Assembly (NCBI GenBank): GCA_014435945.1 | Contig: GCA_014435945.1_4088.1 | Direction: 5' to 3' (one strand) | Source: a phage | DNA length: 64,000 nt | In this document: positions 29,969 through 30,226 of the stretch, piece after piece | How the letters are laid out: every line of letters starts with the position of its first letter | Position numbering within the stretch: the first letter of the stretch is position 1 | The notes under the pieces: model-generated | The model's database searches: none | The model's input: only the letters and a program-made list of their open reading frames with translations | What the model was told of the DNA's origin: nothing | Position numbers and translations under genes: made by a program

Positions 29969-30226
29969 ATGGCTGTAGGATTTGCGAAGGACGGGGCCGA
30001 ACAAGACGAGATTAACGCAGTGATTCAGGCCGCTGTAAACCACGCTAGAAAGCAAATTAACGCACAAAGAGAATCACTGGTACATTGCCTCGACTGCGGC
30101 GATAAAATTCCTGAGAATCGACGCCAGGCCGTTATAGGGTGCATGTATTGTATTACTTGCCAGGAGGATCATGATAGTACTTTTAAAAGAGATCCGCGTA
30201 ATTGTTGGCATAGATCTATGAGATAA
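29969..30226 (+). CDS. TraR/DksA-type C4 zinc-finger protein
   Basis: CLDCGDKIPENRRQAVIGCMYCITCQ: CxxC-x17-CxxC with RR-A, as in TraR/DksA family. Confidence 0.6.
   Translation: MAVGFAKDGAEQDEINAVIQAAVNHARKQINAQRESLVHCLDCGDKIPENRRQAVIGCMYCITCQEDHDSTFKRDPRNCWHRSMR

Follow-up and report, generated by a model that had tools for sequence, protein, structure and literature searches.

We analysed a 64,000-nt stretch of phage DNA (the window), in which a small C4 zinc-finger gene occupies positions 29969-30226 of the plus strand. The region is 91-98% identical to Asteriusvirus jumbo coliphages (121Q, PBECO4-type phages, WPEC5, fEgEco12 and UB), and the window belongs to such a phage, of the 121Q/PBECO4 type. 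As placed in the initial annotation, the gene encodes 85 amino acids; it begins at the earliest possible start codon past the in-frame stop and is preceded by a Shine-Dalgarno motif. All homologues keep the N-terminus from Met1 onward, so this start codon call is right.

Several public records already describe the gene. The RefSeq orthologue in 121Q, gp294, is named 'DksA-like zinc-finger protein', and other records carry the names 'TraR/DksA C4-type zinc finger protein' or 'C-4 type zinc finger protein'; in phage UB (MH383160), a protein with 100% amino-acid identity is encoded in a stretch without annotation. The family assignment is therefore already known from annotated orthologues, as are the gene itself and the retuning of host transcription by phage TraR/DksA homologues (PMC9239242). 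To this we add the assignment to the YbiI type, the failure of the protein in a test for the DxxDxA motif, a pair of invariant terminal peptides and the two terminal-repeat copies of the gene. The features of the locus are collected in Table 1.

Table 1 Features of the zinc-finger gene and its surroundings, in window coordinates.
Feature	Position	Strand	Basis or remark
CDS, YbiI-type TraR/DksA-family C4 zinc-finger protein	29969..30226	+	profile matches; orthologues 121Q gp294, fEgEco12 g030/g644
Shine-Dalgarno GAGG	29957..29960	+	8 nt upstream of the zinc-finger ATG
Codons 1-12, MAVGFAKDGAEQ, in place of the TraR DxxDxA tip	29969..30004	+	residues 2-12 invariant; no alignment to TraR
Zinc-finger core, residues 40-64, C40xxC43-x17-C61xxC64, including I47 P48 E49 x R51 R52	30086..30160	+	homologue alignment, hhalign
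C-terminal tail, residues 72-85, FKRDPRNCWHRSMR	30182..30223	+	residues 77-85 clade-invariant; low-confidence model
48-aa ORF, TTG start	29823..29969	+	121Q gp293, fEgEco12 g029
Nearest upstream promoter-like site, TTGACA-17 nt-CATAAT, TG extended -10, 11/12	29644..29672	+	conserved in 121Q, fEgEco12
Five GATCAA (GATC) sites in leader	29735, 29746, 29762, 29791, 29802 (29735..29807); reverse copy 29800	+	P about 0.004
Perfect promoter of GNAT gene	30234-30261	+	consensus match
GNAT acetyltransferase, 118 aa, directly downstream	30291-30647	+	Pfam PF00583, E=4e-9
Near-identical sigma-70-type promoters	17677-37805; e.g. 28535, 28808, 29121, 30234, 31872, 32211, 32482, 32912, 35334, 35828	+	consensus matches
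12-bp-stem hairpin, two copies, AAAG(G/T)G(A/G)TTGACTCCGGTCAG(T/C)C(C/A)(C/T)TTT then GCTATTATAT	27972-27999, 31630-31657		each overlaps a TTGACT-17-TATTAT promoter-like site

The zinc-finger gene follows a 48-aa ORF for which no family match was found. The TAA stop of this ORF overlaps the zinc-finger ATG (TAATG), an arrangement that suggests translational coupling of the two genes, and the nearest promoter-like site upstream probably drives both as one unit. Compared with 121Q, the 48-aa ORF differs at 12 of 147 positions (~92% identity), nine of them third codon positions. The leader of ~150 nt that separates it from the promoter (29680-29822) shows about 3 differences in 166 positions (~98%). 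Within 73 bp the leader holds five GATC sites, the densest such cluster of the window, where GATC is otherwise depleted (139 observed vs 207 expected); the cluster may act as an operator or as a site of Dam/SeqA type. We rejected the leader as a known RNA, since a search of Rfam gave nothing at E<=1 and its predicted structure is weak (fold z-score -1.85).

Downstream, the acetyltransferase gene with its own promoter adjoins the zinc-finger gene in Asteriusvirus only, and not in T4-like or other jumbo phages. A conserved partner gene, comparable to QisA of phage VP882, was rejected at the sequence level: across 80 loci the flanking ORFs fall into many unrelated clusters. The 48-aa ORF has no similar counterpart among the ORFs upstream of the homologues (phmmer E>0.9); several of these run into the start codon. 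Farther out, the two hairpin copies may each unite a terminator and a promoter in one module between early genes.

The initial annotation had placed the gene in an early block, and two lines of evidence support this: a same-strand array of consensus sigma-70 promoters, and the location in terminal repeats of relatives. TTGACA-N16-18-TATAAT sites matching at least 11 of 12 positions number 28 on the plus strand of the window (15 perfect) vs 6 on the minus strand (1 perfect). Most of the plus-strand sites lie within 17.6-38 kb, each before a small ORF. They follow the extended consensus AGTA-TTGACA-(a/t-rich)-AGTACTG-TATAAT-AGTTTACATCAA, with spacers mostly of 16 nt, an upstream region of 75% A+T and a discriminator GC content of 0.28. 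Repeated short minus-strand ORFs (...SPSCKTLYAFKN and similar) are artefacts of translating these promoter repeats.

In phage fEgEco12 (PP777464.1), whose genome ends are known from experiment, the orthologue occupies 11,479-11,736, inside a direct terminal repeat of 20,993 bp, and a second copy is found at 365,219-365,476; the matched region of vB_Ec-M-J likewise overlaps an annotated terminal repeat. The homologue of the T4-like phage phiR1-RT sits in the early region as well, adjoining the RNAP modifiers Mod, Srd and Mrh, an RNAP ADP-ribosylase among them. Early expression of the zinc-finger gene is thus very probable. Asteriusvirus-type phages have a sigma factor of their own. The related phage PA5oct has been reported to depend on host RNAP, and in phage CBB the region presumed to be early carries RpoD-like promoters. 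A transcriptome for Asteriusvirus phages was not found in the literature. The two fEgEco12 copies, equal in length and with the same neighbours, differ in name: g030 is called 'DksA-like zinc-finger protein' (L001, 6463-6720) and g644 'pro-lysogenic factor' (L086, 320-577).

The protein contains six cysteines (C40, C43, C58, C61, C64 and C79), and its sole match to CxxC-x17-CxxC is C40xxC43-x17-C61xxC64. The peptide on which the initial annotation relied, CLDCGDKIPENRRQAVIGCMYCITCQ, corresponds to residues 40-65, and its 'RR-A' signature to R51 R52 Q53 A54; after a re-check of start and frame, both the spacing and the signature hold. Our homologue set comprises 75 unique phage sequences from 80 viral contigs, in which C40, C43 and C61 never vary and 93% keep C64. 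C58 is variable, being C in 57% of the clade and mostly V in the rest. It is the equivalent of TraR position 55, a site at which lambda Orf73 likewise carries an additional cysteine (PMC9239242).

A profile search places the protein in the TraR/DksA C4 zinc-finger family, as first proposed. Pfam PF01258 (zf-dskA_traR) matches residues 39-68 with 36.8 bits, above its gathering score of 24.9 (E=3.9e-9), and PHROG 54, 'DksA-like zinc-finger protein', matches at E=5.7e-19. The best NCBIfam model is the YbiI equivalog NF008243, which covers residues 1-73 with 79.9 bits, a score that sets the phage protein apart from YbiI proper by falling under the cutoff of 96. The TraR models are under their cutoffs too (TIGR02419, 49.2 < 59.7; NF010268, 31.4 < 108), and DksA_like NF033459 scores 14.3 bits vs a cutoff of 105. 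Among PDB sequences, E. coli YbiI (2KGO, an NMR entry titled Zn-finger protein) is the best match at 6.4e-12, followed by TraR (5W1S, 6N57) at 7e-6. With hhalign, residues 18-74 fall gaplessly on TraR 15-71, at an offset of +3, with 99% probability and E=5.7e-18 against a narrow TraR profile built from the close TraR relatives that the protein search yielded. A scan of viral contigs with the F TraR query, run for a more diverse profile, returned one weak locus.

The AlphaFold2 model, computed from 54 homologues (mean pLDDT 72.9), predicts a helix at residues 6-28 followed by a zinc knuckle, then a short helix (62-68) and a tail that is poorly defined. Searched against the PDB with Foldseek, it ranks YbiI and RNAP-bound TraR at the top, then DksA-type proteins, with TM-scores of 0.37-0.53; such modest values are expected with an elongated flexible protein. 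The Pfam score over cutoff, the alignment to TraR and the fold matches together support the family assignment. By sequence comparison, the closest relative of the phage protein is E. coli YbiI, not TraR.

YbiI (PRK11019), with 88 amino acids to the 85 of the phage protein, is the best match in both sequence and fold, and aligns over residues 1-69 with one single-residue gap. The two have the N-terminus MAxG[FW]A.D.A..[EQ]IN in common, as well as the IPxxRRxA zinc finger and a C-terminal tail that is basic and ends in S-x-(x)-R. They differ in that the phage tail reads PRNCWHRSMR instead of YNRRGSKDSQLR and that position 11 is E, not V. Moreover, ybiI is a chromosomal gene associated with sigma-S and iron, whereas the gene described here is an early gene of a virulent phage. 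Hundreds of phage genomes carry members of the YbiI branch, as do enterobacterial chromosomes, and a structure from this branch has been solved. High expression of YbiI rescues the auxotrophy of a dksA mutant, a result reported as 'data not shown' (PMC2613031). In the accessible part of the YbiI literature, we found nothing functional beyond this sentence and a sigma-S core regulon paper in which ybiI is mentioned.

The work of Gourse and Darst distinguishes three functional elements in TraR. Residues P45, E46, R48 and R49 of its zinc globule contact the beta' rim helices and Si3, its C-terminal helix touches beta lobe-Si1, and the DxxDxA motif of its N-terminal helix is critical for function (PMC6970531; PMC9239242); at the tip, S2 sits 4.3 A from the catalytic Mg2+ (PMC6970531). 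The phage protein resembles F-plasmid TraR in its three-part layout (N-terminal helix, C4 zinc globule, C-terminal segment) and in being small and encoded by a mobile element. At the +3 offset, the four contact residues of the globule are conserved as P48, E49, R51 and R52, and TraR I44 corresponds to I47. R51 is invariant over the 75 phage homologues, P48 is kept in 99% and R52 in 84%. I47 and Q65 are invariant as well, and in the clade of the window the same holds for E49, R52 (100%) and G57. TraR P43, on the other hand, is replaced by K46, a variable position.

The tip is different. The DxxDxA motif is absent from the phage protein: in the gapless +3 register, TraR D3, D6 and A8 fall on A6, G9 and E11. 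Residues 1-17 have no alignment to the TraR profile with hhalign, which begins at residue 18. In the same register, the phage protein exceeds TraR by 3 residues at the end facing the active site, and carries a different, invariant sequence there. Residues 2-12 (AVGFAKDGAEQ) are 100% invariant among the 21 unique sequences of the window clade, and codons 1-12 have dN=0 while dS is 0.55-0.89. The YbiI-type N-terminus MAxG[FW]..D is present here as MAVGFAKDGA; across the 75 phage homologues G4 is kept in 100%, and at position 5 F accounts for 72%, with W in most others.

The C-terminus departs from TraR as well. After CxxCQ come a short helix and then FKRxPRNCWHRSMR; the alignment extends to TraR residue 71, with no conservation of sequence. 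In the model, the short helix and a 14-residue basic tail would stand where TraR has its C-terminal helix. RNCWHRSMR ends 21 of the 75 homologues, with residues 77-85 100% invariant. The remaining 54 end in YNRRGSKDSQLR, a tail at least 96% invariant, and are just 35-57% identical to the protein of the window. The variation among the tail codons is synonymous, so that it is the peptide itself that is under selection.

We rejected a frameshift relation between the two tail types: neither arises from the other in an alternative frame, and the changes among their codons are synonymous. Searched exhaustively, a set of 1.84 billion representatives gave 578 family clusters (E<=1e-3), a single one of which (P0034) has the full-length window-type tail. 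Another representative, P0129, ends in the intermediate form HNRKVWHRSMR; the window-type tail is thus a diverged YbiI tail, and ordinary divergence accounts for the difference. Members of the window-type clade come exclusively from large virulent enterobacterial myoviruses, namely Asteriusvirus, Salmonella jumbo phages and T4-like phages of the Moon, RZ, MHG19 and fHe-Yen9-01 types. At many loci of the other type (L024, L028, L035, L046 and others), the final codons ..TTG/CTG AGG TAA give a GAGG Shine-Dalgarno to the downstream gene; the genes that start 2-5 nt past the stop of these homologues belong to many unrelated families.

Purifying selection on the zinc-finger gene is strong, with a dN/dS of 0.055 relative to fEgEco12 and 0.15 relative to 121Q. 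In this phage, the YbiI branch pairs two invariant terminal peptides and strong selection with the absence of a tip motif held essential in TraR, and both the phage protein and E. coli YbiI bear on whether the DxxDxA rule is general.

The tested phage members of the family supply the closest functional precedents. Lambda Orf73, P2 Orf82, VHML Orf8, VP882 Orf61 and X. bovienii Gp34 are likewise small, phage-encoded early C4 zinc-finger proteins, and set the precedent for a higher phage yield through redirected host transcription; they are, however, of TraR length, have a full or partial DxxDxA motif and come from temperate phages, whereas the protein described here is of the YbiI type and belongs to large virulent myoviruses. 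Five of five tested phage TraR homologues bind RNAP, and lambda Orf73 increases burst size and leaves the lytic promoters of lambda unaffected (PMC9239242). DksA itself shares the Pfam family PF01258 and appears among the fold matches (7KHI, 5VSW, 1TJL). It differs in having 151 amino acids, a two-helix coiled coil with a DxxDxA tip and ppGpp-binding residues, while the 85-residue phage protein has a single N-terminal helix and none of these.

[quoted passage not shown] A host sigma-70 promoter would drive early synthesis of this zinc-ribbon protein of the YbiI branch, whose gene would be the second in a unit of two. Its conserved IPExRR surface would dock it at the channel entrance, and its N-terminal helix of ~25 residues would point down the channel to the active site. 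Initiation kinetics would be altered without DNA binding, as with TraR and lambda Orf73. Transcription would then fall at promoters with short-lived open complexes (rRNA, r-protein), releasing polymerase and resources to the phage.

Promoters sensitive to DksA and TraR have short-lived open complexes and GC-rich discriminators. The early promoters of the phage are predicted to be insensitive, because their hexamers match the consensus and both their upstream regions and their discriminators are rich in A+T; they would probably form stable open complexes and escape, in parallel with lambda Orf73. Our analysis establishes that the gene is real, has homology to the family, keeps the contact residues, lies in an early-type position and is under strong selection; the binding to RNAP, the direction of its effect and the promoter selectivity are what we infer.

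The initial annotation had put forward such retuning of host transcription through the secondary channel. The family and the contact residues speak for it; the missing DxxDxA motif and the missed YbiI and TraR cutoffs make the inference weaker than was assumed. Some zinc-finger members of the family do not act on RNAP like DksA or TraR, and members without the tip motif are known as inactive (PMC9239242). The missing tip, the different C-terminus and a sole functional datum for YbiI given as 'data not shown' argue against simple equivalence with TraR, and keep two rival readings under consideration.

According to the first, which we hold to be rather unlikely, the protein, with its non-acidic tip, occupies the channel without TraR-like allostery, and excludes host DksA (with ppGpp site 2), GreA and GreB or obstructs the active site. 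It would blunt the host stringent response, or its 3-4 extra N-terminal residues would act as the obstruction. Conservation of the rim-helix contacts in the absence of DxxDxA is what such a protein would display. The gapless +3 register also places M1-G4 past the position of TraR S2, near the catalytic Mg2+; G4 is the invariant residue there and an aromatic one follows it in most homologues. Other channel binders, e.g. Rnk, work by competition. However, the register of the N-terminal helix is itself a prediction, YbiI reportedly rescues a dksA mutant instead of mimicking one, and P2 Orf82 and Gp34, whose tip motifs are imperfect, keep a TraR-like activity, if weaker.

A related and tentative proposal, to which we give a low probability, is that YbiI-type proteins, including the phage clade, form a distinct class of secondary-channel effectors, with an invariant, non-acidic N-terminus replacing the DxxDxA tip and an invariant C-terminal linear motif replacing the Si1-binding helix. 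If true, the outcome would be different from that of TraR, e.g. blocked access for DksA/ppGpp and Gre factors or a directly obstructed active site. Large virulent phages, with its gene in both terminal repeats, would deploy this effector during the initial minutes of infection.

The second rival reading dispenses with RNAP: the zinc ribbon would serve as a scaffold, while AVGFAKDGAEQ and RNCWHRSMR would bind another host or phage target, such as a partner protein (as in TraR-QisA of VP882), a nucleic acid or a defence component. We consider it doubtful. The two termini are indeed the most conserved parts of the protein, neither is common to TraR, and the predicted disorder of the tail is like that of a short linear motif; the TraR homologue of VP882 does require a partner protein. 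Yet that complex still depends on the RNAP-binding motif, and the residues with which TraR binds RNAP form the invariant core of the zinc domain here. Moreover, no neighbour gene is kept across clades, the upstream ORFs being mutually unrelated. Binding at the secondary channel, with modulation of initiation, stays our preferred reading.

Finally, a chance ORF or a decaying, functionless pseudogene is highly improbable: the lack of annotation in phage UB and the fragmentary match in phiR1-RT would fit it, but the low dN/dS, with termini invariant while synonymous change is saturated, effectively refutes it, and full-length orthologues in Asteriusvirus, T4-like and Salmonella jumbo phages and a proper Shine-Dalgarno and start codon also speak against it; a chance ORF is excluded. 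Recent horizontal acquisition was likewise rejected: the GC content of the gene is high (0.459 vs a mean of 0.352 for ORFs of the window; rank 5 of 151), but its GC3 of 0.41 is no outlier, and the excess is explained by amino-acid composition.

In Yersinia phage phiR1-RT (NC_019909), the homologue at 18229-18481 (L083, 5001-5253) is matched by tblastn in two pieces, and the annotated CDS, g033, is merely 132 nt long; this copy is either a frameshifted pseudogene or the product of a sequencing error.
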